Positions 3,600 to 63,042 of a stretch of DNA of 64,000 nucleotides are shown here, piece after piece (positions within the stretch are counted from its first letter, which is position 1; each line of letters opens with the position of its first letter). Origin of the DNA: a virus. Under the pieces are notes generated by a model. That model was given only the letters and a program-made list of their open reading frames with translations, did not search any database and was not told the DNA's origin. The stretch is taken from the UHGV virus genome UHGV-0020956, one strand, 5' to 3'. Both the position numbers and the translations under genes were made by a program.

Positions 3600-4877
3600 T
3601 TAAAACGCTGACACTAGCTTAATTTCTTTTTGTAATGTCAAATCATCAGCTTCTATTGTCAAAATTAATAAATCAGACGTAGGTTTTATACAAGTTAAAG
3701 CATATGTATTATCTGATTTAGATAAATTATAATACCCTTGTTTAACACCAGTCGCAGTTACAGTAACATCAACATTTTGTTTAACACCGTTAATCATCAG
3801 CATTGGTTCAAAAATTTGAACACTGCCTTGACGTACTTGCGTGAAAACAGGGGTTATAACAATCTCTTTTTTCTCAACCACAGTTTCTACCACAGTGCAT
3901 ACTGCTTCGTCTTGTACTGTCTTGTACTGACTGGTAGCCACATGAAATTCAATTTTAGACCCTATTTCAACCTCTGCTGAAATTTGATAATTGCCATTTT
4001 CGTCTATTGTTGCACTTTCAGACGGTACAGCCCACCATTGTAAAGGAATAGACAGTCGCTCATTGTCCCTCATTACAATAGCTTGTAACCTACCGCTACC
4101 ACCTTGTACCACCTCAAATTCACCATCTTGTATCATAATCGAAAAAGTATGCTCATAACGATTAGCCACATTATTTTCAGTATCATCAGACGGTTGAATT
4201 TCATCAAGATATAAATCTATATAAAGAATAGTAGTATCTTGGTCTATATAACTATTCTGCATATAATTATTATATCCAGTAATTTTAAAAGGTCTACCGT
4301 TAAAAATAAACCTTTTATTCTGTTTCCACTTGATTGTTTCCTTGTTTCCTTGTACAATCATTACAACATGGTTATCTGGCGTAACAATATCTTCCATGTA
4401 CTTAGGCGATGGTGAAGTAGGTGTATAGTCCAAAATACAAGGTACTGATATAATATCACCAGTATTTTCGTCTACATATTTTGCAAGATTATTACAACGT
4501 CTAACAACAACAGCTTCGGAAACACTGTTATAGTTATCTGTGTAAGTAGTAATCCAAAAGTTGTCATCAAATTGATATAATAATCCTCTAGTATTTCTAT
4601 CGGAAGAACCATTTTCTTGAATAATATCTTTGAAAATTAACTTTCTGAAATCATCACCGTTTTTACGTCCGGTGCTTGTTTCCTCTATAACATGATTTAT
4701 ATAAACCTCAATAGGATTAAATTCAAAAGAACCTATTTCAGTTTCTTCGCCTACGCCATACTGCACAGTAGTATTATCCCATTGAAAATTAACCAATGCT
4801 TGCATATCGTTTCTATACTTACTGTTAGGGGTCATAGCCAGACCCTCTAGGTAAGCACCATAATAAGTTAATGCCAT
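3600..4877 (-). CDS. hypothetical structural protein (possible tail/receptor-binding component)
   Basis: 425 aa ORF in structural operon; no recognisable motif. Confidence 0.35.
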   Translation of the reverse strand: MALTYYGAYLEGLAMTPNSKYRNDMQALVNFQWDNTTVQYGVGEETEIGSFEFNPIEVYINHVIEETSTGRKNGDDFRKLIFKDIIQENGSSDRNTRGLLYQFDDNFWITTYTDNYNSVSEAVVVRRCNNLAKYVDENTGDIISVPCILDYTPTSPSPKYMEDIVTPDNHVVMIVQGNKETIKWKQNKRFIFNGRPFKITGYNNYMQNSYIDQDTTILYIDLYLDEIQPSDDTENNVANRYEHTFSIMIQDGEFEVVQGGSGRLQAIVMRDNERLSIPLQWWAVPSESATIDENGNYQISAEVEIGSKIEFHVATSQYKTVQDEAVCTVVETVVEKKEIVITPVFTQVRQGSVQIFEPMLMINGVKQNVDVTVTATGVKQGYYNLSKSDNTYALTCIKPTSDLLILTIEADDLTLQKEIKLVSAF

Positions 4878-22293: not shown

Positions 22294-24084
22294 TCAATCC
22301 AAGGTATTTTGCTGATATAACTGTCCACACAAAATACGTTTTGATAATTCTTTATATTCATTTGTATTTTCATTAAGCAACGCTAATTTATCTATCTGTG
22401 CCGATACTCTATTAGTGATTGTACCTACCTCTGAGCCTAATCCCATACGGTTACTTTTCCTAATATCGTTTCTTTTAACAACTTTTTTCTCACCTTTACG
22501 TTGCACACAATCAATAGCATTTGTATATTTATAAGCACTTAAAAGTACGTTATTATTAGTAGAATATATAGAGTCGCTGTCAAAATCGCTCCCGTTCAAA
22601 GCCATACATATAGTATCCCAATCATTCAATATCATCATTGTATTTAAATATTTATACCATTCTTTGCATTTTTCATTATTACTTACTTTCATTTTCCTAA
22701 TATTATTATGAGAAGTCATTGGAGAACGAAAACAAACCACCTCGTTCACACCTTTATCTATCCAATATTGTGAATAAATTTCGTTAGCTTTCAATAATCC
22801 AGTAACTTCCAAACTATATATACTTTGCATTAAAGCATAAGGGTCACCCATAATAATCTGATAATTCCCCTCAACTTTTAATTTTCCAATCTTAGCTTGA
22901 TTAATCTTTTTCTTAATCATTTTGTTAATTCTGTCAATCACATAAGGGTCATTCATCATTCTTTCGTCCAAATATAACGCTTGTGCATAATCTTTAGTTT
23001 TAGTTTTTTCACCAACACCTAAAAATTCTTTTGTTTTTTGATAATCTCCGGCAAACGCCATTTTCAACCAATCAACAGTAGGTTTACATAATTCTATAAT
23101 CTGCTCGTCTGTCAGTTCATAACTTTGCAAATACTGATAATTTGTTTCTCTTGTATCCTCTAACTTTTTAGGTGTTACCTTTGTAGCAGAAAACCTATAT
23201 CCGTTTTCATAATAACACTTGTGGTATTCTTCCCAACTTGAATAATTATCCCATAGTTTAAGACTGGATTCAGTGATAATCATATCTATATCTCGAATAT
23301 CTCTTTCAGTACCCCAAATGTCTTTTACTTTATATCCTTTACCAACTTCCTCAGCAAATTTTATAATCTCAAAAACGTTTAACATACCTTTCAGATAAGC
23401 ATTTCTTAAACAAATACCACTTGGCAGATAATCAAGACCTAGTTTAGCAGCAACTCTTTGCATATATTCTGGTGTACAAAGGTTCATACCGTCACTACCG
23501 TTGTTTTCTAAGTCTGCACCAAATTTTTCCTCAACGATAGGTTCGTCTGTTTCACTATCATCAATCCTAACCACATCACCCTTAAACTTAGTGATACAAT
23601 CTCGTACAACCAATACAGAGCGTGGTTCTGGTATCTCAACGGATGCTGAATAGGTCAGAGCAATATAAGCCTCTAATTTAGCTGGTATGGCTTTGTAATC
23701 TTTCTTTCTGCCACAATCAGTCCTCTTAATCAACTCTGGTAAAATATCTTCTCTCACAAACAGCAAAGTGTTATTTTTAAGACCGCCAGTAGTTCCAACA
23801 GCCCACAAAAATCTTTTACCATTTAAAATCACACCTGTTTTAGACGTAACCTTGTCATAATCACTCATTGAGGAAATCTCCACAGCAAGCATTAAATCCG
23901 TCATATCTTGCTTGTACCGCTTGCTACCCACAATTAAATCTATCAGTCGAAACGCTTGTGAATCAAACAAGTCAATCAATTCATCTAAACGAACTGCCAA
24001 TTCTTTAGATAAAGTAATCTGCCAGTTGTTCATTCGGAATCGTTCAGACGAAATCTTGAAAATCTTTCTACGCTTGTTTTGCAT
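22294..24084 (-). CDS. large hypothetical protein, first gene of leftward operon; contains N-x-x-D-F-D-x-D motif
   Basis: 596 aa; LNGSDFDSDS near C-terminus resembles the NADFDGD metal-binding signature of multisubunit/YonO-like RNA polymerases; otherwise no recognisable domain. Confidence 0.35.
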   Translation of the reverse strand: MQNKRRKIFKISSERFRMNNWQITLSKELAVRLDELIDLFDSQAFRLIDLIVGSKRYKQDMTDLMLAVEISSMSDYDKVTSKTGVILNGKRFLWAVGTTGGLKNNTLLFVREDILPELIKRTDCGRKKDYKAIPAKLEAYIALTYSASVEIPEPRSVLVVRDCITKFKGDVVRIDDSETDEPIVEEKFGADLENNGSDGMNLCTPEYMQRVAAKLGLDYLPSGICLRNAYLKGMLNVFEIIKFAEEVGKGYKVKDIWGTERDIRDIDMIITESSLKLWDNYSSWEEYHKCYYENGYRFSATKVTPKKLEDTRETNYQYLQSYELTDEQIIELCKPTVDWLKMAFAGDYQKTKEFLGVGEKTKTKDYAQALYLDERMMNDPYVIDRINKMIKKKINQAKIGKLKVEGNYQIIMGDPYALMQSIYSLEVTGLLKANEIYSQYWIDKGVNEVVCFRSPMTSHNNIRKMKVSNNEKCKEWYKYLNTMMILNDWDTICMALNGSDFDSDSIYSTNNNVLLSAYKYTNAIDCVQRKGEKKVVKRNDIRKSNRMGLGSEVGTITNRVSAQIDKLALLNENTNEYKELSKRILCGQLYQQNTLD

Positions 24085-31102: not shown

Positions 31103-31141
31103 TTTATAAAAAATAATAATTAACAAAGGTTGGTAAACAAA

Positions 31142-31747
31142 ATGGAGAATAAAGTATTAGCAGGTGCGAAACTTGCAGGCGGTAATCCAGAAAACGGAAG
31201 GGTTGAAGATGATTACTACGCAACTAATCCAGAAGCAGTAAAAATGCTGCTGACTAAGTATACATTTGATGCACATACAATCCTAGAACCTTGTGTTGGT
31301 GGAGGTCATATTGCCAATGCGATTAATGATTTTTACACAAATAAACGAGAAATTACAGGATTAGATCTGGTGGACAGAGGATATCCTGGGACAATTGTTG
31401 CTGATTTCCTTACATATGAAACTGATAAAAAGTATGAAGGCATTATCACAAATCCGCCGTATTCATTAGCAAAGGAATTTGTAGAAAAAGGTATGGAGTT
31501 TTTAGAAGATAATGGTCAGATGGCAATGTTTTTAAAAATCCAATTTTTAGAGGGTGCAAAACGAAAAGAACTGTTTGACAAATATCCTCCGAAGTACATC
31601 TATGTTTTTAGAAATCGTATGGCAACTTGGAATAGTGGACTAGAGAAAGACCCAAAGACAGGGAAACGTTGGGCAACAACTATGTGTCATGCTTGGTTCA
31701 TTTGGGAGAAAGGAAGTACGTCTGAACCGGTAGTAAGATGGTTATAA
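31142..31747 (+). CDS. DNA N6-adenine methyltransferase (orphan)
   Basis: SAM motif EPCVGGGHI and catalytic motif IV ITNPPYS; no adjacent restriction endonuclease. Confidence 0.6.
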   Translation: MENKVLAGAKLAGGNPENGRVEDDYYATNPEAVKMLLTKYTFDAHTILEPCVGGGHIANAINDFYTNKREITGLDLVDRGYPGTIVADFLTYETDKKYEGIITNPPYSLAKEFVEKGMEFLEDNGQMAMFLKIQFLEGAKRKELFDKYPPKYIYVFRNRMATWNSGLEKDPKTGKRWATTMCHAWFIWEKGSTSEPVVRWL

Positions 31748-31895
31748 AGAGATAAATAAAGGAGGATGTAATAGATATGGACAAGATAGATAAAATCAAA
31801 AAAGAAATTTTTACATCTATGAAAATTTTGGATGTATCTGTTAGCGGTTAATATGCTCGAAGGTTATGATACCGAAGCCCTACCGCCCAGATATG

Positions 31896-31966
31896 GGAAT
31901 TATAGTGTTGGATACCGTCACCGTAGAGAACCTACAAGGGTAGGGGTTCAATTCCCCTTAATTCCC
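31896..31966 (+). tRNA. degenerate tRNA-like element (possible tRNA pseudogene)
   Basis: good acceptor stem ggaatta/taattcc and T-arm agggg-ttcaatt-cccct, but anticodon arm does not fold canonically. Confidence 0.25.
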
Positions 31967-31981
31967 CTCTTTAAAAATAAA

Positions 31982-32055
31982 GGAACAATATTTCAACTGG
32001 CAGAAAATTCGGCTCATAACCGAAAAGTTATAGGTTCGAGTCCTATTTGTTCCAC
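31982..32055 (+). tRNA. tRNA-Met (anticodon CAU; could be elongator, initiator or lysidinylated Ile)
   Basis: canonical cloverleaf: acceptor ggaacaa/ttgttcc, D-stem tttc/gaaa, anticodon stem ttcgg/ccgaa loop ctCATaa, T-arm atagg-ttcgagt-cctat. Confidence 0.85.
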
Positions 32056-32242
32056 TAGAAGAATAATTAGTATTGAAATACACCACCAAAAGTTATATGA
32101 TAACCTTAAATCATTGTTGCCATACTAATTATTCTTCATAGCACTAAAATAGCAGTATAGTATAACAAAACCACCACCCCTGTTTATACTGTATTGCTAT
32201 TTTTTATTACAAAAAAATATTATTTAAAAAGGAGAAATAAAA

Positions 32243-32608
32243 ATGTTTAAAGGAAAATTAATGAGTAGATGCAACTGTCAGCATTGTGACGCTTATATTA
32301 ATATTCCAGTAAATTGGTTCACAATGTATTTTTATGAGGATTTAACAAGATGTTGGATTTTCTTGCATATGAAATTAAACCATAGTTTCCAGAGTACAGA
32401 AGATAACTGGTTTACTTTTGTGTTAAGGTTTATTGGATTGATGTTAAAATTTGATTTGGCTTGTATGCTAATTCCAGTAAAGATTGTATTGATACCGTTT
32501 TTAATGTTAGATAGATTTTTATTCTTTGACGCTAGAAGAGATATGGATTTTGAGTATCTGGAAAGTGACGACATTGAGGAAGATGAAGATAAAAGCGAGG
32601 AAAAATAA
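32243..32608 (+). CDS. hypothetical protein with hydrophobic core and acidic C-terminal tail
   Basis: 121 aa; C-terminal EYLESDDIEEDEDKSEEK. Confidence 0.4.
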   Translation: MFKGKLMSRCNCQHCDAYINIPVNWFTMYFYEDLTRCWIFLHMKLNHSFQSTEDNWFTFVLRFIGLMLKFDLACMLIPVKIVLIPFLMLDRFLFFDARRDMDFEYLESDDIEEDEDKSEEK

Positions 32609-32610
32609 TA

Positions 32611-33306
32611 ATGGAAAAGTTACAGGTAAATAAGATTTATAATACAGATTTTAGAGAAGCATTTAAAAACTACGATTTATCTAATGTAAATTTGATAGCA
32701 ACTGACCCGCCCTATAATATAAATTTTAACTATAACAACTATAAAGATAACTTGGGGGGGGTAGAGTATATTAGCTTACTAAGCAATTTTAAAAATTTCC
32801 CAACAGCTATAATTCATTATCCAGAAGAAATGATGAAATATGTTGTACCTGCGTTGGGCGTGCCTAATGAGGTTTGTGCTTGGTGTTATAATTCTAATTT
32901 ACCTAAACAATTCAGATTGATTAACTTTTATAATGTAAAAGTTGATTTTAATAAAGTAAAACAGCCATATAAGAATCCAAATGACAAAAGAATAAAAGAA
33001 CTGATAGCAAAAGGTAGTAAAGGTTCAAGATTGTATGATTGGTTTTCTGATATACAACTTGTGAAAAATGTATCCAAAGAAAATATCAATCACCCTTGTC
33101 CTGTTCCAGTAGAACTAATGGAAAGAATTATTTTATTGACCACAAATGAGGGAGATATAGTATTAGACCCTTTTATGGGTTCTGGTACTACGGCAATAGC
33201 TTGTATAAACACTAAAAGGAATTATATAGGTTTTGAAATAGATAGAGATTATTATTTATCTTCTCTGGAAAGAATTGATAAACACATTAAAAAAAAGGAG
33301 AACTAA
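32611..33306 (+). CDS. beta-class DNA methyltransferase (N6-adenine or N4-cytosine), orphan
   Basis: motif IV ATDPPYN near N-terminus and motif I DPFMGSGTTAIAC near C-terminus (beta-class order). Confidence 0.7.
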   Translation: MEKLQVNKIYNTDFREAFKNYDLSNVNLIATDPPYNINFNYNNYKDNLGGVEYISLLSNFKNFPTAIIHYPEEMMKYVVPALGVPNEVCAWCYNSNLPKQFRLINFYNVKVDFNKVKQPYKNPNDKRIKELIAKGSKGSRLYDWFSDIQLVKNVSKENINHPCPVPVELMERIILLTTNEGDIVLDPFMGSGTTAIACINTKRNYIGFEIDRDYYLSSLERIDKHIKKKEN

Positions 33307-34122: not shown

Positions 34123-34546
34123 TAAAATAAGAGAAGCAAAAAGAGGAAAACTCACCAAAGAGGAAAACGCCATTAAACAAGTTTCAGCATGTATAAAAGC
34201 ATGGGAGAATAATGAACCTGCCACACTTAGCACTGAAACAATGAAAATAATCCTTAAAACCTTAAAAGAGGTAAAAGACTTTCGTGACGTTGGCAATGTG
34301 AAAGCTATGAAAGAATTAAAAAAACTCAGCCTTAAACGTCAGCCCAAAAGTCTTAACAAAAAATATTGCGACTATAAAGTTGATGATGAAGAAATCCACT
34401 CTTTCTACGGCATTTGCCCCAACTGTGAACAACCATTAAATTTCTACTGGCATCAAAAATATTGCGGCAACTGTGGACAAGCCCTTATCTGGCGAAACTT
34501 AAAGTCAGTCATAAGTAAGAAAGACCTTGACAAAATTATAAAATAG
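34091..34546 (+). CDS. hypothetical Zn-finger protein
   Basis: 151 aa; CPNCEQ...CGNCGQ four-Cys motif. Confidence 0.4.
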   Translation: MLESELFSMIDKIREAKRGKLTKEENAIKQVSACIKAWENNEPATLSTETMKIILKTLKEVKDFRDVGNVKAMKELKKLSLKRQPKSLNKKYCDYKVDDEEIHSFYGICPNCEQPLNFYWHQKYCGNCGQALIWRNLKSVISKKDLDKIIK

Positions 34547-34561
34547 CAGACCACATTTTGA

Positions 34562-34600
34562 AACCCCTTAGTATAAACAAGTACAAGGGGTTCTTTTTTA
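34562..34600 (+). terminator. rho-independent terminator ending the early operon
   Basis: aacccctt...aaggggtt stem followed by TTTTTT. Confidence 0.7.
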
Positions 34601-35689
34601 TTTCCAACCAAGTTATCACAATCAGAACAAAAATCCCCTATACCCACTTTCTACGGACTGTTACCACCCTAAATCAGAACAAATCCCCCTAACTCAGAAC
34701 ACGTAAATCCACCCCATATTGCAAAATGCCACACAACGTCCAAGGGAACATTTATTTGCAATGTCTTATAAATTGGACACCTAGAACAGTAATAAAAACC
34801 ATTTAAGCCCTAAGACATTGCAAATCGCACATTCAAAAACGCCTACGCAGAAACCATTACATTTATACCCATGGGGGTATGGGTACTTTTCGCCAATAGT
34901 TCTTTTTAGAACCAATTTTTCGTTATTCATAATTTTTAATAACGCTCAGTGAATTGACAAGACAACTGACATTACAGGTGACAAGACAGTTGGCAAGACA
35001 ATTCTTAATTCTCCACTATGGTTATGATAAACCACACTCCCCAAAATCTAACCACCTACAAATACTCCCCTATACCGTTACAAGTCATTTAAAGACCCTT
35101 ACAAACGGTTTTAATAAGCAAGAAGATTAAGTTATCATGTGCGAACCGAAATGCTCACATTTGCCTTGTACTAAAAAGTGACACCTTGTTATGTTCCCCA
35201 AACCCCTACAGGAATAATAGTCAAACATTAAACCAGTATACCGGTATACGGCGAATGACCCTTAACCCCGGTACACAATCACCCCCCTATCAGATAATAT
35301 GTTATCTATTGTGAAGAGTAGATGATTAAGAGATAGAATTGCAAGAATTATAAGAGTAGATAAGGGATAAGAGGATTGAGGACTGGATAATATGTTGGCT
35401 ATTACATACTCGTAAATGTTATTCCACGATACCGCCTACGCCTATGAAACCACTAGGCATAAAGAGCAAAATGATACACACATTTTCGTCACATATATCT
35501 TAAATACTCTTAGACGATTTACTGTGTGTTATTGTGGTGAGAAATGGTATGAAAAGTATAGGGATTGAGAGTGGCGCAAAAGTGGAGTGTGATAGGGTAT
35601 GGGGATATGTCTTATCGTGTGTGTGCATTATATATAGTTATATATCCAGATTGAGATAGATGAATAAAATATGGGACAGATTGTAAGAG

Positions 35690-36075
35690 TGAAGAGTAGG
35701 TTAATTGGGATAATGATATGATGTGGGTTATAGGTATCATGAGTAAAAGGTATGTATGAGGGGGATATTGAGGGAAGAGATAAAAGATATGGGTGAGAGT
35801 GTGGATAGGGGATAGTGAAGAGATAATAAAAGATAATTGAGATAGGATATGGGGATAGGAAAGAGGCGAGAGGTTGATAAGGATAATGAGAGCAAGAGGT
35901 AAGATAAGTGATAAAGAGTGAACTGGGGGGTTGGGTGCTAAAGAGGGGATTAGGGGAGAACTGGAAAGGGAAATTGAAGTTGATGAGAAGTTGGGAAGTG
36001 AATGAGGGAACGGGAGGAACGAATGGGAAACATGAGGGTGAAATATTATAAAACTGATGGGTGGGAGTGTGAGGT
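35690..36075. repeat. C-depleted (G/A/T-only) block on top strand built from GGATAA/GATAAG/TGTGGATAG motifs
   Basis: about 11 C in ~390 nt by eye; repeated GATA(A/G)G units. Confidence 0.7.
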
Positions 36076-36219
36076 GTATCAGCTATGCCGAGGGTGCGAA
36101 AATCGTATATACGAATTGTCTGAAAATACCCCCAGTTAGGCATGACTAATAGAACAACTGTTCGACTTGTCCAGGGGAGGGGGCGGTATAGTCTGCTTGC
36201 ACCGGAGCAGAACGCCAAA

Positions 36220-36254
36220 AAACGTGTCTATAATAAATCATTATAGACACGTTT
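36220..36254. repeat. perfect palindrome (15-bp arms, 5-nt loop) at the symmetry centre of the two compositional blocks
   Basis: aaacgtgtctataat-aaatc-attatagacacgttt. Confidence 0.8.
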
Positions 36255-36419
36255 GTATGCAAGCGGTTGCACAAAATTGCATATTGCGTTGCATATAATG
36301 GAAAGTATTAGCGAAAGTGATATTTTTTTATAGATATATTTACAGGAGTTATAAGTGTATGTTAAAAAAGTGACGTAATAAGATAATGTTATATATGTGA
36401 TACCATATACCAGTATTAA

Positions 36420-37040
36420 CCATTATCCCTTATCTTCTATCCTCTGCTTTCCCGTCTTAATGTTTCTTAATGTTTCATGTGAAACATGTGTAATATATTT
36501 TATCCAAATCAATTCATATTTATATCGCATCACGTTTCCGTTTTTCCATCTTCCCATACCTTATATATACCATCTTTCATTCTTCCACCTATCAACCCAC
36601 TTTCCACCCGTCCATGCATCCCACTTTCTGCCAGATCCGTTTCGTTCCAATTCCGTTTCCGTTTCCGCTTATCCTAGTTCCCACACTTTAACATCTTGCA
36701 ATCATTCCCACTTGCTACCATATCGCATACTACTTTACATATATACTCATACCATATTATCACATACGCACATTACTTTACATAGTAACCATAACCACTC
36801 ACATAGTATTCAATACTACTTATAACGCTATTCACATTCTATAACACATTTTCCAATACTATCTCATATCCCTATTAATCCACTATGTTAATATGCAATC
36901 AATAACCCATTATCCCTATAGGTTAATATGTAAATCATAAATCCTATAACCCACTAACATAGTAGATTAATATATTATCATAAACCCACTTGCTTACTAT
37001 GTAATAAGCATTTTATAAACCTATTAACACACTATGTTAT
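36420..37040. repeat. G-depleted (C/T/A-only) block on top strand built from TTATCC/CTTATC motifs (reverse complement of left block motifs)
   Basis: G fraction by eye ~5%; TTATCC at ~36425, 36503, 36670, 36910; spurious long ORFs arise because only TAA stops are possible. Confidence 0.7.
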
Positions 37041-37992
37041 TGAATTGATATACAATTTATTAAGTTATTGCTATTGTTACCATTTTAGACAATACTTTTA
37101 TCACAACGGCTCAATTTTAGTCGATAGCTTAAAGTTATATGAAAACTATAGTTATTTAAGCAATAATGATACACATTAAAACGTCTAATATATATATTAT
37201 ATATGGCACGAAAATGTATGTGCTATTGTTTGCAAAATTGCTACAATTTTCATTATGTTAGCACAACTCCAATTTTTCGGTTTACATAAGGCGTAAATAT
37301 TCAGACTCAATTTGAATTTTAGATTAATTCAACTGTGCTTATTAATAAGTGGCATTTTTAATAAGTATATCTAATAATAAGTGGCAAGTGATAGTATGCC
37401 ATAAATGGTCAAATGCCGTTTAAAGCCCCTAGAAGCCATTTTAAGACGTTTTGGGGGCGTACCCTTATATTTTATCGCTGAACCTTTTCCAATGGAAACT
37501 ATGTTATATAGTATTGAAAACTATGTAATTATCTGACAATTTAGCGCTCATAAGTGGCAAGTGCTAGTAATTAGTTTGATACTCAAATGTTTTAGCAATC
37601 AACTGTATTGAGTGCTAACAAGTAAACATATGTGAACCGTTGCCATATATGAATAGTTGCTAACTATGAATTGTAAATAAATGTTTACTAACGGGCTTCT
37701 GGCATAAAGCAGATCACTTTGTATAGGCAGTGGGCTTACTATGCTTACTTATATATATGTATACACGCATAGGGCTTTATATGTGGGCTTGCGTATGCTT
37801 TTATATGGTATCCTGCTTTTTGTAAATCCCTTTATATAAGGAAGTGATACAATCGAACAAATGTTTTTTATGAAAAGTTTTTTATGAAAAGTGTATAGAA
37901 AATATACGATTTTTTGGTAGTTTTTACTATTGAGTATATCTATACATTTTGTTATAATCGATTTATCAAAAAAGATAAAGGAGAAAAAACCA

Positions 37993-39474: not shown

Positions 39475-40755
39475 ATGTATACTATCACAAATACACAGTG
39501 GTCTTTTAAGAAAGTTGCAGAGGAAATGAAAAAAGGAACTATTGATTTTAAGTGTGGTGGTGCGCAAAGAGGATTTGTTTGGGATAAAGCAAGACAGTCT
39601 TTGTTTGTACATTCTGGACTTAAAGGAGATCTTATTCCTTGTTTGTATATTCGTAGAATTATTGAGAAGGAAGTTGAACAGTGTGAGGAAGCCATCAAAG
39701 AAGTAAAAAAAGTAAAATATGTTTTTGAAACGAGGGACGGAAAACAAAGATGTACTACGATTTTAAAGTTTATTAATAATGAGTTTAAAACTTCTGGTAT
39801 TCCAGAGTATGAAGAAGGGGACAAACTTGATTATAGAATTGAACGCAACGGTGAACTTGTAAGCCCCAACGGTATTGGTTTTGAGGATTTAACAGAAGAT
39901 GAAAAATTGGACTTTTTAACGCGTTCTATTACTGTTTATTATATCGACAACGCAACGGACGCAGAAGCAGATATGATTTTCCTTAAGTTAAACAATGGAA
40001 AAGCATTGACTACCGCAGAAAGGAACAGAGCAGAAGCAAAGTCAAGAGGTGAAATCATTGATATTGCGAACCATGATATTTTTAAGCTGATGTTTAGCGA
40101 AAAAACGTTAGATAATAACGCATTTGATACCGTTGTAAAATCTTATATTATGTTAAATAATGATAATCCGTCACTGCTCAATAAGGACGTTAAACCGTTA
40201 ATGAAATCTATTGATATTACAGAAGCGGATAAAAAGGAGTTAAATGATATTTTTGATTATATTTTAGAAACTCACAACGTTCTGGAAAGTAAGAAAGTTA
40301 AAAAAAGAATTATTGGAAAGACAAGTTTCTTATCTTTAATTCCAGTTGCAGAACAGGCGTTAAATGATGGAAAGATTGCAGAAGAATTTGCAAGTTTTCT
40401 TGACAAGTTTTTCTCTGGAAAGACAACTAAAGAGCCAACAATCAGTACAACTTATAACGAAAACTTCTTTGATTCTTCCGCAAGCAGAATGAAGATTAGA
40501 TTAAGACACAACGCACTTATGAACGAATACGAAAGATTTTTCAATGGTGAAATTGAAAACGTATACAGTGAAAATGCTGAAGATTTACAGGAAGAAATTG
40601 ACGAAGCAGAAACCGTGGCAGAATACATTGATATTGACGAATTGAGTAAACCAGATGAAGAAGTGCAGACAGAGGAAAACAAAACAGATGAGCAGATAGA
40701 AGAAGCTACAGAACAGGAAACATCTGTAGAAGAAGCAGAAACAGAAGTATTTTAG
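39475..40755 (+). CDS. DUF262 (ParB-like nuclease/NTPase domain, GmrSD N-terminal type) protein with acidic C-terminal tail
   Basis: 426 aa; GGAQRGFVWD and DGKQRCTT correspond to the (I)xFQR..VW and DGQQR signatures of DUF262; C-terminus EEVQTEENKTDEQIEEATEQETSVEEAETEVF. Confidence 0.65.
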   Translation: MYTITNTQWSFKKVAEEMKKGTIDFKCGGAQRGFVWDKARQSLFVHSGLKGDLIPCLYIRRIIEKEVEQCEEAIKEVKKVKYVFETRDGKQRCTTILKFINNEFKTSGIPEYEEGDKLDYRIERNGELVSPNGIGFEDLTEDEKLDFLTRSITVYYIDNATDAEADMIFLKLNNGKALTTAERNRAEAKSRGEIIDIANHDIFKLMFSEKTLDNNAFDTVVKSYIMLNNDNPSLLNKDVKPLMKSIDITEADKKELNDIFDYILETHNVLESKKVKKRIIGKTSFLSLIPVAEQALNDGKIAEEFASFLDKFFSGKTTKEPTISTTYNENFFDSSASRMKIRLRHNALMNEYERFFNGEIENVYSENAEDLQEEIDEAETVAEYIDIDELSKPDEEVQTEENKTDEQIEEATEQETSVEEAETEVF

Positions 40756-42895: not shown

Positions 42896-43729
42896 ATGGC
42901 AAAAAATGTATATGAAATGGTAACAGATAGAATTATTGAAGAATTAGAAAAAGGCGTTATTCCTTGGAAAAAACCTTGGAAAAGTATTTCCAACGGAGCA
43001 TATAACAGAGTAAGTAAAAAACCTTATAGTTTACTTAATCAGCTTATGCTAAAGCATGAAGGAGAATATGCAACTTTTAAACAGTGGCAGGAAATGGGCG
43101 GAAAAATCAAAAAAGGAGCAAAGTCTGAATTTGTAGTGTTCTGGAAAATGTTAGCAGTTGAAGAAGAAAAAGACGGTGCTACTATTACAAAGACAATACC
43201 AATGTTACGGTATTACAACGTATTCCACATTTCACAGGTTGAAGGCGTTGAACCTTTGGAAACTGTAGAAGCTACACACAATGAACCAATAGAAGAAGCC
43301 GAAAAAGTGAAAAATGGTTATAGCACTAGGGAAAATATCCAGATCATAGAAGAAGTCGGAAATAAAGCATTTTATAGTCTTAGTGGGGATTATATCTGTA
43401 TCCCGTGTAAGGAGCAGTTTGAAAAAATCAATGAATACTACAGCACTGCCTTTCATGAAATGGTTCATAGTACTGGACACAAGAAAAGACTTGATAGATT
43501 AGTTAATGCCAAGTTTGGAAGTGAAAAGTACAGCAAAGAAGAACTGGTAGCAGAAATAGGTTCGGCAATGATTTTAAACGAACTGGGAATTGAAACATCA
43601 GATACATTTGAAAACTCTACAGCTTATATTCAGAGTTGGTTACAAGTTTTAAAAAATGATAGTAAGTTTATTGTTAGTGCTTCTGGAAAAGCAGAAAAAG
43701 CAGTAAAGTATATCTTAGGAATTGAATAA
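42896..43729 (+). CDS. ardC: ArdC-like antirestriction protein (N-terminal ssDNA-binding domain plus zincin-like metalloprotease domain)
   Basis: N-terminus VYEMVTDRIIEELEKGVIPWKKPW is the ArdC-N signature; C-terminal HEMVHSTGH HExxH motif. Confidence 0.8.
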   Translation: MAKNVYEMVTDRIIEELEKGVIPWKKPWKSISNGAYNRVSKKPYSLLNQLMLKHEGEYATFKQWQEMGGKIKKGAKSEFVVFWKMLAVEEEKDGATITKTIPMLRYYNVFHISQVEGVEPLETVEATHNEPIEEAEKVKNGYSTRENIQIIEEVGNKAFYSLSGDYICIPCKEQFEKINEYYSTAFHEMVHSTGHKKRLDRLVNAKFGSEKYSKEELVAEIGSAMILNELGIETSDTFENSTAYIQSWLQVLKNDSKFIVSASGKAEKAVKYILGIE

Positions 43730-47138: not shown

Positions 47139-47942
47139 ATGACAAATATTACAAGATTTTTAAATGGTTTAAAGAGTGAACATACAAAGGTAGCATACGA
47201 GAATGATTTAAAACAGTTCTTTGATTTTACTGGTAAAGACGAAACTGAAATCACTTATGCTGATATTTACGATTACAAAGTGTCTATGAGTGAGTACAGC
47301 AGTGCTACAACAGCACGTAAACTGACAGCTATTAAATCCTATTTCAATTTTCTTTCTGACATGGAATTTATTTCTACTAATCCTTCTGCTAAAATCAAAA
47401 TTCCAAAAGTAAAGAATCACGAAAAAGAATATATCCCTATGGACGAAGCAAAGAAATTATTAGACGTTGCTAAATCCCCTAGAGATAAAGCTATCATTGC
47501 ATTATATCTTTCAACTGGTATGCGAGTTAATGAACTGGTGAATTTAACTGTAGAGCAGTATGAGAAAGATGAAATCGTATTTATTGCTAAAGGTGACAAG
47601 GAAAGAAAAGTATATCTTAATGATAAGTGTAGAGGATATATTAACGAATATTTAAAAGTTCGCAAAAATAGTGGTATTGATAATCTGTTTGTAAGTAATT
47701 ATGGTACACCTATGCGACATGATTTAATTGCTAAAATGTTAAAGAAAAATGCTAAAAAAGCAGGATTAAGTGAGGATATAACTAATCATAGCTTAAGGCA
47801 CAGCTATGTTTCATGTATTTGCGACAACTATGGTATTAATGTTGCGAAAGATGTTATAGGGCATAGTTCAACGAGAATTACTGAAAAATATGCACATAAT
47901 ACTCAAGATACAATTAAAAATGCCATGGTATCTGTTTTCTAA
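47139..47942 (+). CDS. tyrosine site-specific recombinase (XerC/D-like integrase)
   Basis: 267 aa; GMRVNEL (box I Arg), HSLRHSYVS (H-x-x-R), GHSSTRITEKYAH (catalytic Tyr). Confidence 0.8.
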   Translation: MTNITRFLNGLKSEHTKVAYENDLKQFFDFTGKDETEITYADIYDYKVSMSEYSSATTARKLTAIKSYFNFLSDMEFISTNPSAKIKIPKVKNHEKEYIPMDEAKKLLDVAKSPRDKAIIALYLSTGMRVNELVNLTVEQYEKDEIVFIAKGDKERKVYLNDKCRGYINEYLKVRKNSGIDNLFVSNYGTPMRHDLIAKMLKKNAKKAGLSEDITNHSLRHSYVSCICDNYGINVAKDVIGHSSTRITEKYAHNTQDTIKNAMVSVF

Positions 47943-54851: not shown

Positions 54852-55976
54852 GTGATATTGTTGGAAAAGGGTTTTAAGTATAGAATTTATCCAAATAAGA
54901 AACAGCAAGAGTTAATACAGAAAACGTTTGGCTGTTGTAGATATGTTTATAATTATTTCTTAGATAAAAGAATAACTGAGTATAAAGAAAATAAAAAGAC
55001 TTTAAGTTTTTATGATACAAATAAAATGCTTACTCAATTAAAGAAAGAAAACGAATGGCTTAAAGAACCAGATAAAAATGCTTTGCAAATAGCGTTAAGA
55101 AATTTAGATAAAGCTTATAAAAAATTTTTTAAACAACAGTCTGGCTATCCTAAATTTAAGTCTAAGAAAAATAATTATCAATCTTATACTACAAGTTGTA
55201 ATAAAAAAGTGCATAAAGATACAATAAGGATTGAAAACAAACATATCAGACTTCCAAAATTAGGTTTTGTAAAAATTCGTGATAAACAAGTTCCGCAAGG
55301 AAGAATACTTAATGCTACTATATCGCAAGAACCAAATGGACATTATTATTGTTCGTTATGTTGCACTGATATAGAATTTCCACAATATCCAAAAACAAAT
55401 AAAAATGTTGGAATAGATTTAGGAATTGTAGATTTTGCAATCTTATCTGACGGTATTAAGATTAAAAATCCTAGATTTTATGAAAAGTCAGAAAAGAAAC
55501 TTGCTAAGTTACAAAAAGAATTATCGAGAAAAACAATCGGTGGCTCTAATTGGAATAAAGCAAGAATTAAAGTTGCAAAACTATATAAACATATATCTAA
55601 TCAACGCAAAGATTTTTTACAGAAATTAACTACTAATTTTGTAAGACAATATGATATTATTTGTATTAAAGATTTAAGTATTAAATCTATGAAAGAAATA
55701 AGTTCAAAAATTCGTAACAAACATTTGGAAGATGTTTCATGGTTTGAATTTCGCAGAATGTTGACTTATAAATCTACATGGTATGGAAAGATATTATCTG
55801 TAATTGATAGATATTTTCCTTCTTCACAAATTTGTCATTGTTGTGGTGCTAATGGAGGTAAAAAGTCTGTTGAGATTAGATACTGGATTTGTTCTAACTG
55901 TGGTTCAAAATTAGATAGGGACGATAATGCTTCTATTAATATTTTGAATGAAGGAATGAGAATTTTAAGTGTTTAA
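54852..55976 (+). CDS. tnpB: IS200/IS605-family TnpB (RNA-guided nuclease-type transposon protein)
   Basis: 374 aa; N-terminal KGFKYRIYPNKKQQELIQKTFGCCRYVYN; C-terminal Zn finger CHCCG..CSNCGSK and RuvC-III DRDDNASINILN. Confidence 0.85.
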   Translation: MILLEKGFKYRIYPNKKQQELIQKTFGCCRYVYNYFLDKRITEYKENKKTLSFYDTNKMLTQLKKENEWLKEPDKNALQIALRNLDKAYKKFFKQQSGYPKFKSKKNNYQSYTTSCNKKVHKDTIRIENKHIRLPKLGFVKIRDKQVPQGRILNATISQEPNGHYYCSLCCTDIEFPQYPKTNKNVGIDLGIVDFAILSDGIKIKNPRFYEKSEKKLAKLQKELSRKTIGGSNWNKARIKVAKLYKHISNQRKDFLQKLTTNFVRQYDIICIKDLSIKSMKEISSKIRNKHLEDVSWFEFRRMLTYKSTWYGKILSVIDRYFPSSQICHCCGANGGKKSVEIRYWICSNCGSKLDRDDNASINILNEGMRILSV

Positions 55977-60893: not shown

Positions 60894-61328
60894 ATGGAAA
60901 AATTTAAAGATAAAACTTATATTGTAGTTTGTAGTGATTTTGATAAAGCTAGAAACGCTATTAGAAAAGAACTGTATAAACATTATCAAAGGGATAGTGA
61001 CGAGCCAAGTGTTACCAGAGAGATTAAAGCTATGACAATTAACGATACTAAAATAAAAGAAACTTATAGAGGTAATCTTAGACTTATTGAAAATGTAGGT
61101 CGAGATTATTTAAAAGGCTACGCTTATTCCAGATTAAATCCATTTGATAGCATTAAGATTTTATGGTTGGATATTAACAAATTTAAGAATCCGTCAAAAG
61201 GTAATTTTGGGTATTATGATGATGTTGTGAAAGTTATTATTGTAGGTAATGACAGTTTATCATTTTATCTTAACAACTTAAAGAAAAGTTTTAATTTGGA
61301 TATAGAAGTAGAAATTATAATGATGTAA
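60894..61328 (+). CDS. hypothetical protein
   Basis: 144 aa ORF with RBS gaaaggagaaacatATG. Confidence 0.45.
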   Translation: MEKFKDKTYIVVCSDFDKARNAIRKELYKHYQRDSDEPSVTREIKAMTINDTKIKETYRGNLRLIENVGRDYLKGYAYSRLNPFDSIKILWLDINKFKNPSKGNFGYYDDVVKVIIVGNDSLSFYLNNLKKSFNLDIEVEIIMM

Positions 61329-61342
61329 AAGGAGAGAATGTT

Positions 61343-61744
61343 ATGATTAATGATGTAACTTATGAACTGATTAGAATTGTAAAGAAAATTGACTTAAATA
61401 ATAGTTTATTTGAGAGAACAGAAGAAAGTAATATTAGTAAAATCGTAAATAAAGACATTGAAAATCTTATTAAAGAAATGGTGGAAACTGATAGCCAGTT
61501 CAGATTTAAGAAAAACATTTTCGATAGACAGTACGGAATGAATGTTAAATATTTAAGATGTGGTGAGGTAGTTATTAAATCTAAAGAGGGGCTAGGGTTG
61601 GTAACTGTTATGGATATTGATGAATTTTTAGAAGTGCTGAGTTTTAGAATTTATAATGGGATTGAGAAAACAAAAGAAGAACATAAGAACTGGAAGTTGT
61701 GGAAAATGAGTAAGGTGGATTTGGAGAAAATGGGAGTTATGTAG
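61343..61744 (+). CDS. hypothetical protein
   Basis: 133 aa ORF with RBS aaaggagagaatgttATG. Confidence 0.45.
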   Translation: MINDVTYELIRIVKKIDLNNSLFERTEESNISKIVNKDIENLIKEMVETDSQFRFKKNIFDRQYGMNVKYLRCGEVVIKSKEGLGLVTVMDIDEFLEVLSFRIYNGIEKTKEEHKNWKLWKMSKVDLEKMGVM

Positions 61745-61752
61745 GTGATAAT

Positions 61753-63042
61753 ATGGGAAAGTTTATAGATATGACTGGTTGGAGAATGTCAGAACATGGT
61801 GTTCCAAATAGTAGGTTGACTGTTATTGAAAGAGCAGAAGATACTTTTAGTCCAAAAGGTTCGAGAATTACTAATTGGAAATGTAAATGCGATTGTGGAA
61901 AAATAAAAGTTATACAAGGTACAGCATTAAGAAAAGGTGTTGTTTTATCTTGTGGCTGTTATCATCTTGAGTTGCTTTTAGCAAGTGTTAAAAGTAGAAA
62001 AATGGTTAATAAATATGTTGATAAAGGTGACTATTTAGAAGGTTATGACGGAAAAGGTAATTGCTTTTTAATTGATAAAGACGATTATAATAAAGTAAAA
62101 GATTACCGTTGGAATATGGACAATCATGGATATTGGTGTTATAGCACTTCTTCTAAAGAAAATGGTCGAACCAGAATAAAAATGCATAAATTGATTTGCC
62201 CCTCACCTTCTAAAGATTTAGTAGTAGACCATTATAATAGAAATCGTTCTGATAATAGAAAAAACAATTTGTTTTTAAAAACACCTAGAGAAAATGGAAT
62301 AAATAAAGAAATTCCTTCTAATAATACTTCTGGATTTATTGGTGTCAGCCAAAGAAAAGACGGGTATTGGGTAGTAAGAATTAATACTGACGTTGATAAA
62401 ACAAGGATGATTAGTAGTTTTGCAACAAAAGAAGAAGCTTTAATATGTAGATTAAACTTTGAAAAATTGTATTACAAAGAAAATGCTCCACAAAGACATT
62501 TATTTGAAGAATATAATATAACAGAAGAAGGTGCAAAAGAATATTGTAATCAAATTTTTAAAAGAATTGATAATACAAGTGGAACAATGGGTGTTTTTAA
62601 AAGAGAAAATAAAGATACATGGCGAGTAGAAATTAGGGTAAAAAATGAAAGAAAAAATTTTGGTAGTTTTACAAATAAAGAAGAAGCTATAAGAGTTAGA
62701 CTTCTTATGGAAAAATATTATTATGGTGACAATGCTTTACAGAAAAATCTTTTTGATAAATATAACATTACTTTAGAAGAAGCTATAAAGTTTCATGATG
62801 ATTTTTATAAAAAGAAAGAAATAGAAAAAGAAAAGAAAAAAGATAAAATAACAGGTGTAAGCTATTCAGAAAAAATAAAAAAATGGGAAGTTTATATTTG
62901 TGTTAATAGAAAAAATATATACTTAGGTGCTTATAAAGATAAGAATGATGCTATTATAGCGAGATTAAAAGGTGAAATAAAATATAGAGGTAAGGATAAC
63001 GCACCACAGAAACATTTATTTAAACAATACGGAATAGAGTAG
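61753..63042 (+). CDS. HNH homing endonuclease with three AP2-type DNA-binding repeats (free-standing)
   Basis: HNH motif VVDHYNRNRSDNRKNNL; AP2-like repeats SGFIGVSQRKDGYWVVRI, SGTMGVFKRENKDTWRVEIRV, KITGVSYSEKIKKWEVYICV; flanked by duplicated gtaggtgataatatg. Confidence 0.75.
   Translation: MGKFIDMTGWRMSEHGVPNSRLTVIERAEDTFSPKGSRITNWKCKCDCGKIKVIQGTALRKGVVLSCGCYHLELLLASVKSRKMVNKYVDKGDYLEGYDGKGNCFLIDKDDYNKVKDYRWNMDNHGYWCYSTSSKENGRTRIKMHKLICPSPSKDLVVDHYNRNRSDNRKNNLFLKTPRENGINKEIPSNNTSGFIGVSQRKDGYWVVRINTDVDKTRMISSFATKEEALICRLNFEKLYYKENAPQRHLFEEYNITEEGAKEYCNQIFKRIDNTSGTMGVFKRENKDTWRVEIRVKNERKNFGSFTNKEEAIRVRLLMEKYYYGDNALQKNLFDKYNITLEEAIKFHDDFYKKKEIEKEKKKDKITGVSYSEKIKKWEVYICVNRKNIYLGAYKDKNDAIIARLKGEIKYRGKDNAPQKHLFKQYGIE

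Follow-up and report, generated by a model that had tools for sequence, protein, structure and literature searches.

The 64,000-nucleotide (nt) stretch of the virus genome UHGV-0020956 analyzed here (the window, to which all plain coordinates refer) is a portion of a ~100-kb tailed-phage genome. It contains a locus built from a G-rich arm, a conserved core of ~340 bp, and a C-rich arm. The locus sits within a 3.4-kb gene-free gap, between a plus-strand gene that ends at 34546 and the next gene, which starts at 37992. Judged by alignment with related phages, its arms are conserved by composition and not by sequence. The explanation that we favor, and to which we give a little less than an even chance, is that the locus is the noncoding packaging and genome-end hub of a ~100-kb headful (pac-type) siphophage that has Lachnospiraceae as hosts and belongs to the PMBT24/CB457P1 lineage. 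Within that reading, and held with the same reserve, the core would carry conserved blocks of a protein-binding type together with an inverted repeat, and the terminase would make its series-initiating cut at the right edge of the core in PMBT24. We could not match the arms to any described element, and the locus may be a new form of phage pac region.

The two arms are defined by their strand composition:

35508-36088, no strand assigned: left arm; top strand G-rich and C-depleted (24 C in 581 nt), with the G-rich strand running 5′ to 3′ toward the core
36420-37040, no strand assigned: right arm; top strand C-rich and G-depleted (39 G in 621 nt), with the G-rich bottom strand running 5′ to 3′ toward the core

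An earlier note on this DNA had described a C-poor block at 35690-36075 facing a block almost devoid of G. The first is borne out (A142 C10 G150 T84 in 386 nt), and its true extent is 35508-36088, the sole place in the 64 kb with at most 12 C per 300 nt (mean, 44.5; standard deviation, 14.9). The second is indeed depleted, with G at 6.3% versus 16% overall (A184 C168 G39 T230, a 2.5-fold depletion), although the 39 G that remain make “almost devoid” too strong. Sliding GC skew confirms that the strand composition is mirror imaged: the arms hold the most extreme 400-nt intervals of the 64 kb (+0.88 at 35679 and −0.70 at 36494), and the switch from plus to minus between them scores 1.51 (z = 6.7), compared to 0.54 for the next best elsewhere in the window.

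The arms, low in complexity and 300 to 700 bp long, have inward-running G-rich strands with 33 to 39% G and 2.5 to 6% C. What is specific to the arms is the exclusion of C combined with the enrichment of G (39% versus 16%); their G+C content is 39 to 47%, versus 31% overall, and T stands at 22% versus 33%. The suggestion that the inward strands would be purine only does not hold. In the left arm, purines make up 76% of the G-rich strand and T another 22%; in the right arm, the purine share is 64% on the G-rich strand and 36% on the top strand. The inward strands are C-poor instead. Triplex (H-DNA) formation is rejected, as the longest purine run in any arm measures 7 to 16 nt, which is too short. 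The arms are not complementary to each other, as had been noted from the sequence; the inverted matches between them are short (16 to 21 nt). Their C-rich strands are nearly free of structure, folding at −1 to −6 kcal/mol per 200 nt versus a window background of −30 ± 9 kcal/mol.

G-quadruplex formation was rejected as well, since canonical motifs number zero in 11 of 14 arms at loops of up to 7 nt. A search for a shared arm motif, by k-mer enrichment over mononucleotide and first-order Markov models, gave only weak GGGATA, ATAGGG, and GATAG signals. Elsewhere in the window, two coding stretches are also strongly strand biased, 61151-61900 (G-rich and C-poor on the top strand) and 11751-12200 (G-poor on the top strand). 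Both biases are milder than those of the arms and lie within open reading frames (ORFs); at 61601, the antisense strand is only weakly folded (−1.8 kcal/mol per 200 nt).

How widely is this architecture distributed? Distant DNA and protein similarity to the window is restricted to the Enterocloster bolteae phages PMBT24, CB457P1, CB457P2, and CB473P1-3, and a blastn search of 35300-37500 against database phages found no DNA similarity. Relatives of the locus were reached via its flanking proteins and via a pattern built from the conserved core element. The pattern retrieved 6 IMG/VR contigs, 23 metagenome stretches, and 5 contigs of metagenome-assembled genomes (MAGs), and a neighboring protein added six loci. 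The layout is present in every relative found, that is, in the six cultured E. bolteae phages and ~25 metagenomic contigs; the skew pattern was seen in CB457P1, PMBT24, CB473P3, 11 IMG/VR loci, and ~16 metagenome or MAG contigs. True relatives have a skew of +0.7 to +1.0 over 300 to 500 nt, then ~300 nt of neutral sequence, then a skew of −0.5 to −1.0 over 400 to 700 nt, a layout absent from chance hits to the core pattern.

The earlier note had proposed looking for the architecture in related phage genomes, and it proves to be present in three clades: clade A, made up of the window and its closer relatives; clade B, with PMBT24 and CB457P1; and clade C, with CB473P3 and others. In PMBT24, the layout spans the ends of the GenBank record, and the arms are the only blocks of at least 500 nt with an absolute skew of at least 0.6 in the 99,962-bp genome; the window likewise has a single such locus. 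The presence of the architecture in six isolate genomes and many independent assemblies rules out an assembly artifact, which had also been considered. Thomasclavelia TR-TP2 and Alicyclobacillus MMB025, which share the Xer-like or DUF262 genes, have neither the architecture nor a dif-like site in the 25 to 35 kb examined, and no plasmid (phage-plasmid) relatives were found by portal protein.

Within clade A, identity is 84 to 87% in the left flank, 80 to 91% in the core, and 81 to 86% in the right flank. The hypervariable portion of the left arm in the window, 35646-36060, has no homologue in ~45 related loci (BLAST, word size 7), and the right arm shares 68 to 82% identity with its counterparts in relatives, interrupted by many indels of lengths not divisible by three. 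Among eight clade-A genomes, variable columns make up 71% of the left arm, 62% of the proximal right arm (36420-36780), and 26 to 29% of the distal right arm and flanks; the variant bases in the left arm are C in 7%. Tandem duplications of the slippage type are visible in the arms. These alignments argue that the arms evolve two to three times faster than neighboring noncoding DNA, under an enforced composition rule.

Such variability raises the question of whether the arms are simply a functionless by-product, left by strand-specific mutation (for instance, C deamination) on 3′ tails at a recurrent double-strand break, with slippage added. The C-depleted strand is the one that would be left single by 5′-to-3′ resection from a cut in the core, and both the slippage-type duplications and the high variability of the arms agree with such a history. 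However, the pattern has been held in three clades despite complete sequence turnover. In addition, a simple deamination bias fails because it should raise T and lower G+C, whereas G is up 2.4-fold (39% versus 16%), T is reduced (22% versus 33%), and G+C is raised (39 to 47% versus 31%). A by-product of this kind therefore seems quite improbable.

The same alignments bear on two long frames at the locus, listed here with the repeats at its right end:

35628-36218, minus strand: spurious ORF of 196 amino acids (aa), a by-product of the G-poor outward strand, inside the unalignable left arm
36397-36825, plus strand: spurious ORF of 142 aa, a by-product of the G-poor outward strand, with non-multiple-of-three indels among close relatives
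36780-37045, no strand assigned: repeats I9, I10, and D6 from the repeat listing of the window

The view that G-poor outward strands give rise to spurious ORFs is upheld. The frames exist, but both are judged spurious because, in comparisons of close relatives, their sequence either cannot be aligned or has indels of lengths not divisible by three. At the place equivalent to 36780-37045, clade B has a different repeated word, ATTCATA. Four metagenome contigs (L022, L035, L018, and L028) have assemblies that break in the left arm or just past the C-run of the core. These breaks are consistent with strain-level hypervariability or low complexity at the locus, and they are a practical hazard when assembling these phages.

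The core, at 36061-36419, lies between the arms, and a further palindrome is found in the right arm:

36061-36135, no strand assigned: conserved core element, with GTGTATCAGCTAT at 36074-36086, the 12-bp palindrome TCGTATATACGA at 36103-36114, and TTGTCTGAAAATACCCCC at 36116-36133
36220-36254, no strand assigned: central inverted repeat AAACGTGTCTATAAT-AAATC-ATTATAGACACGTTT; arms at 36220-36234 and 36240-36254, 100% complementary, with a 5-nt spacer
36255-36419, no strand assigned: right half of the core, with conserved TAATGGAAAGTATT at 36296-36309 and GTGACGTAATAAGATAATGTTATATATGTGATACC at 36370-36404
36470-36487, no strand assigned: 18-bp palindrome ATGTTTCATGTGAAACAT, embedded in the right arm

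In alignments, the element at 36061-36135 is invariant or nearly so in clades A, B, and C. The blocks that are invariant across the clades are CAGCTA, the palindrome TCGTATATACGA, TTGTCTGAAARTACCCC, the central inverted repeat, and TAATGRAAAGTATT. The repeat listing agrees with the earlier note in finding a perfect palindrome with 15-bp arms between the two blocks. It is preceded by an A6 run and followed by TTT, and its half-site is unique in the window. Relatives keep it as an imperfect inverted repeat with one compensatory change from a T-A to a C-G pair; in the other clade-A genomes, the left arm of the repeat is imperfect and the right arm is constant. The palindrome within the right arm recurs as TGTT(T/C)CA(C/T)(G/A)TGAAACAT in 10 of 12 scanned genomes, with all three clades represented (ATGTTTCAYGTGAAACAT), with offsets of +361 to +371 in the clade A genomes and of +598 to +651 in those of clades B and C. 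It is probably a protein-binding island.

The central repeat folds into a hairpin of −20.6 and −21.2 kcal/mol on the two strands of the window form, and the most structured 200 nt of the window is the core at 36100-36299 (−66.8 kcal/mol). The A and T runs beside the hairpin are kept in all clades, which gives it the form of a bidirectional terminator (in the window, A6, a 15-bp stem, and TTT). This suggests another explanation, in which the arms would be transcribed, either into convergent, C-poor, purine-rich noncoding RNAs that stop at the central terminator or into divergent, G-poor, unstructured RNAs that would be ideally suited to Rho loading (rut). The sense strand in Firmicutes is usually the purine-rich one. 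The weak folding of the outward strands (−1 to −6 kcal/mol per 200 nt) would also fit, and these phages have their own sigma factors and a noncanonical RNA polymerase annotated as “RdRP,” so that their promoters could be atypical.

However, the terminator form comes with caveats: the stem is AT-rich, the plus-strand tail has 3 T, and the PMBT24 hairpin is not listed by ARNold at a ΔG of ≤−10 kcal/mol. Promoter-like sites in the window are at chance level (24 versus 23.4), and the PMBT24 arms and core contain no promoter (PhagePromoter, ≥0.9) and no terminator (ARNold, at the same ΔG threshold). The stem sequence is conserved and not freely varying, the strand on which it folds more stably is not the same in clade B as in clade C, and there is nothing to the left for a leftward RNA to express. 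A structured noncoding RNA gene is ruled out, given that an Rfam search of the locus gave no hit below E = 0.5 and that the consensus fold of 14 cores reaches −4.9 kcal/mol, the conserved structure being the hairpin only. We consider transcription of the arms unlikely, and nothing tested supports the G-less RNAs that had been put forward as a possible role.

What ties the locus to packaging is the genome end of PMBT24. PhageTerm analysis of that phage gave a single significant peak, called as headful packaging, and the authors took the site as the origin of their map. This origin falls at the junction of the core and the right arm, ~165 to 175 bp right of the palindrome. The homologous position in the window is ~36400-36425, which is approximate, as the alignment is weak there. 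The starts of the PMBT24 record and of the paper's map read ...GGCGAACCCTCAAAATATG/AGATACATTC/ACCCACTATCC, and the record junction reads ...GGCGAACCCTCAAAATATG/AGATACATTCACCC...; the junction is contiguous in an independent IMG/VR contig (L009). The coordinates of the paper start 10 nt further right, in the window orientation, and GenBank version.2 is the reverse complement. Because the paper map and GenBank.2 are reverse complements offset by 10 nt, the packaging direction is not recoverable from them.

The central inverted repeat connects the locus to site-specific recombination. We built a position weight matrix (PWM) from 20 distinct Firmicutes dif sites of Kono et al. (PMC3025954). The PMBT24 inverted repeat AGCGTCCATAATACATATTATGTACACT scores 25.1 bits, inside the range covered by real dif sites (24.9 to 40.1 bits); it is the best of ~200,000 genome positions (runner-up, 13.8 bits), and 60 simulated genomes gave a mean maximum of 11.1 bits and a top value of 21.9 bits. 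Elsewhere in clades B and C, the sites reach 20.9 bits, the highest score in their loci. The window repeat occupies the same position as the 28-bp dif-like site of clades B and C, with a spacer one base longer and ATTATAG replacing ATTATG. The 26-bp elements of clades C and B are exact reverse complements of each other, and the surrounding core has kept its orientation (L002 7138-7165 versus L033 733-760 or L048 ~4275-4305); as aligned, the difference between these clades is a clean inversion of the dif-like site.

A possible enzyme for this site is encoded in the window:

47139-47942, plus strand: small Xer-like tyrosine recombinase, 267 aa (Pfam Phage_integrase and SAM_1)

Its best solved relatives are XerA (5hxy, 2e-29) and XerD (1a0p), and it is 58% identical to the “XerD” of PMBT24. 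All six isolated E. bolteae phages carry a recombinase of 267 to 272 aa, which is a candidate to act on the central inverted repeat. Other proteins encoded in the window are RecJ-like, AAA_24 (Sak4/RecA-like), and DnaB-like, and the PMBT24 annotation lists RecA, Gam, SSB, and exonuclease V.

The dif-like location is also the GC-skew switch at which the G-rich strands converge, and a correlation between dif sites and skew shift points has been published (PMC3025954). One could therefore read the locus as a miniature chromosome terminus, with a dif-type site for the phage Xer-like enzyme and/or host XerCD, KOPS/SRS-like arms that steer an FtsK/SpoIIIE-type translocase, and pac as a secondary matter. 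The likeness to the bacterial dif/XerCD/FtsK/KOPS system lies in a 28-bp imperfect palindrome of the ATAAT-N4-ATTATG type placed exactly at the strongest plus-to-minus skew switch, in a single site per replicon (it is unique in the PMBT24 genome), in the converging G-rich strands, and in the Xer-family recombinase of all isolates. A C-free inward strand would eliminate all reverse-oriented purine-rich polarity words. The E. coli dif site tolerates inversion inside its activity zone, as the site here does between clades B and C.

On the other hand, the skew here is extreme over ~1 kb, compared to megabases of mild skew in bacteria, and known KOPS/SRS words are not enriched, although the host motif may differ. 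The site of the window is not dif-like by PWM, with a poor score and an inner spacer of 5 nt rather than 4 nt. The replicon is a virulent-looking phage, the isolates being reported as virulent, and dimer resolution is of little use to phages that package concatemers; no FtsK-like gene was seen among the annotated parts. We find this explanation rather unlikely. A variant in which packaging is kept, a self-contained mini-terminus combining a dif/lox-like site, its own Xer-type recombinase, the packaging cut, and composition-coded polarity arms that direct an end-processing enzyme or translocase, is to our minds unlikely too.

Returning to the packaging and genome-end hub, we imagine that the terminase (TerS/TerL) would assemble on the core and cut there. 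After the cut, both new ends would carry a long, structure-poor, G-rich, C-free 3′-ending strand, with the same polarity relative to the end as Chi sites, KOPS motifs, or telomeres. This G-rich strand could condition nucleases, recombinases, or translocases starting from or heading for the core; RecJ-like, RecA/Sak4-like, Gam, and ExoV-like proteins are encoded by the phage. If packaging proceeds leftward, the inverted repeat would lie ~170 bp into the first headful and recur within the terminal redundancy of that headful, and the phage Xer-like enzyme might then circularize the injected DNA in the fashion of P1 Cre-loxP. We infer that it is through their composition, and not through a fixed word, that the arms condition how ends are processed, recombination, or the direction of a translocase, which would account for both the constraint on them and their free sequence drift.

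Several observations weigh against this reading. The pac assignment comes from one PhageTerm call, on one strand, in one relative that is ~50% diverged in its flanking proteins. The arms share no repeated TerS-type motif (GGGATA/ATAGGG is mildly enriched, with a mean z of ~2 and a copy number of 1 to 13), and no consistent peak of helical phasing (10 to 11 bp; AA/TT, GG, A-tracts, T, and G) was found in them. The window repeat reaches 8.5 bits, and only when a 1-nt gap is allowed, and it is outscored as a dif match elsewhere in the window; because of this score, the dif reading for the window rests on positional homology. The KOPS/SRS words GGGNAGGG, GAGAAGGG, and GAAGAAG show no enrichment as exact words in the arms, and word polarity there is perfect but a trivial consequence of composition. 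To our knowledge, every known Chi sequence contains C, the base excluded from the arms. Finally, it is from polarity alone that we infer the role proposed for the arms.

No described strand-asymmetric pac region was found in the literature, but parts of the arrangement have parallels. In SPP1, pac is tripartite (pacL-pacC-pacR), and the cut falls between two flanks engaged by the small terminase, giving an encapsidated and a nonencapsidated side (PMC6316719). As is proposed for the phage studied here, this Bacillus subtilis phage is a headful phage of a Gram-positive host with its cut between two flanking regions. However, the SPP1 pac overlaps the terS promoter and gene and is without strand-composition asymmetry, whereas the locus described here spans ~1.5 kb, lies 17 to 20 kb from the terminase gene in the 3.4-kb gene-free gap, and has hypervariable flanks defined by composition. 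The SPP1 pac measures ~270 bp.

P1 offers another comparison. It is a ~100-kb headful phage with short repeated elements on both sides of its pac cut, and a tyrosine-recombinase site stands near enough to pac to enter the terminal redundancy, which leads to site-specific cyclization. Genome size is shared, as headful packaging and a recombinase-type site near pac would be, the link between recombinase and site being putative here. In P1, however, pac takes up 162 bp inside the pacA gene and includes Dam-methylated hexamers, with loxP kilobases distant and no skewed arms. Cre-loxP has been cited as a resolution system (PMC10999674).

Among eukaryotic viruses, the pac1/pac2 signals of herpesviruses have G-rich tracts beside a T-rich element at the cleavage/packaging signal (PMC13595911). 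Those tracts are tens of base pairs long and capable of forming G-quadruplexes, whereas most arms here are without quadruplex motifs. A precedent for a large ORF-less pac region is the Vibrio phage ICP1, in which the PhageTerm pac site lies in a 1.3-kb ORF-less space with a proposed tie to a replication function or putative rolling-circle origin (PMC7145576). Mirror-image composition or a palindrome is not reported for ICP1, and the phages are unrelated.

The ICP1 precedent is one reason to ask whether the locus is a replication origin, either one at which R-loops from inward transcription prime synthesis or a rolling-circle origin coupled to pac. G-rich nontemplate strands favor R-loops, and the wider gap contains iteron-like repeats (TGACAAGACA at 34955-35000, ATAAGTGGCA at 37344-37559, and an ACATAGT cluster). 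Against this, the skew polarity, with the G-rich strand running inward, is terminus-like and not origin-like. The core has no AT-rich unwinding element beside a conserved array of initiator sites, no promoters were found, and the replication genes are >10 kb away. We judge an origin at this locus to be improbable.

The particular form of origin suggested by the earlier note, a degenerate inverted array of DnaA-box-like motifs that would drive DnaA-dependent initiation or titrate DnaA, fares worse. The GATA-type units on which it was based are indeed enriched in the clade of the window (19 in the left arm versus 6.1 expected), as are GGATA words, and one-mismatch boxes occur at 35800 and 36500. 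Clade B, however, keeps the architecture without this enrichment, and the array reading fails because GATA enrichment is clade specific while the composition bias is universal. No arm contains a TGTGNATAA 9-mer. Only 2 of the 34 one-mismatch boxes of the window lie in the arms, and the box total is near chance (22.8 ± 5.2 expected in the window). These 2 boxes, in 1.35 kb, match the consensus TTATCCACA with at most one mismatch, and a DnaA-box cluster was rejected. A DnaA array seems to us highly improbable. Overall, the earlier note described the structure of the locus well for the most part, and most of its proposals on function do not stand.

In the wider genome around the locus, structural genes lie on the minus strand (274-24084), and genes for early functions, replication, and recombination lie on the plus strand (24677-63042); the window contains two tRNAs. 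From 34546 to 37992, the ORF list of the window includes no real-looking ORF of at least 50 aa. The left border of this noncoding region is marked by a terminator-like element:

34566-34600, plus strand: hairpin and T-run TTCTTTTTT, which ends the upstream plus-strand operon (fold, −14.5 kcal/mol)

A good promoter-like site precedes the gene starting at 37992. The genes that flank the gap encode DNA methyltransferases, a zinc-ribbon protein, small unknown proteins, and a DUF262/GmrSD-like protein; several methyltransferases lie at 31130-33306 and the GmrSD-like DUF262 protein at 39475-40755. An anti-restriction-type gene with ArdC-N and zincin metallopeptidase domains (42896-43729, plus strand) is found among the early genes.

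Other parts of the gap have features of their own. On its left, the C-rich interval 34600-35300 (skew, −0.4) shows 85% conservation in clade A and is missing from clade B; within it, an iteron-like block at 34955-35000 is made of ~4 tandem 12-nt units with the consensus TGACAAGACAGC and TGACAAGACA copies. On its right, between the right arm and the first early gene, ATAAGTGGCA occurs three times in highly conserved noncoding DNA at 37344-37559, with two copies inside a 20-nt direct repeat (37377-37396 and 37550-37569, 95% identical). These copies may be operator or iteron sites. The ACATAGT cluster is also in the 3.4-kb gap.

The large-terminase gene of the window is apparently split (minus strand, 14760-18433), with an N-terminal part that matches PHROG 15503 at 18101-18433 and the remainder at 14760-16334. 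Between the two parts is an endonuclease ORF at 16636-18114, with PHROG 4645 and D5-like/HNH signals, and the CB457P1 annotation has an intron-associated endonuclease at the matching position; the split probably reflects the insertion of a group I intron or homing endonuclease. A TnpB/IS605 OrfB-like gene (54852-55976, plus strand), with OrfB_IS605, HTH_OrfB, and Cas12f1-like TNB domains, adjoins the DnaB-like helicase in the replication module. The PMBT24 record annotates an 831-aa “RNA-dependent RNA polymerase” at 9612-12107, next to a divergent switch in gene orientation. The window ORF that corresponds to this region (22294-24084, minus strand) matches only PHROGs of unknown function. The PMBT24 protein may be a single-subunit RNA polymerase of the YonO/crAss type, and, if so, atypical promoters would be expected in this phage group.

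Headful pac sites are known in detail for a handful of models, none of this form. Here, a lineage of phages of gut Firmicutes, including six cultured, manipulable isolates, keeps ~1 kb of DNA whose sequence is free and whose strand composition is fixed, mirror imaged around what would be the place of the first genome cut and around a dif-like site. In practical terms, the signature, a positive and then a negative skew block around TCGTATATNCGANTTGNCTGAAA, would serve to flag the pac site and the correct start of the genome when phages of this group are assembled from metagenomes, and it also accounts for the spurious ORFs annotated at the locus. Were the self-contained mini-terminus to prove correct, it would amount to a sequence-free encoding of DNA polarity and a telomere- or Chi-like conditioning of a programmed viral double-strand break. 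More generally, if the arms act on DNA ends or translocases, they would represent a new way of writing direction into DNA, and packaging, recombination, and circularization would be joined at one locus.

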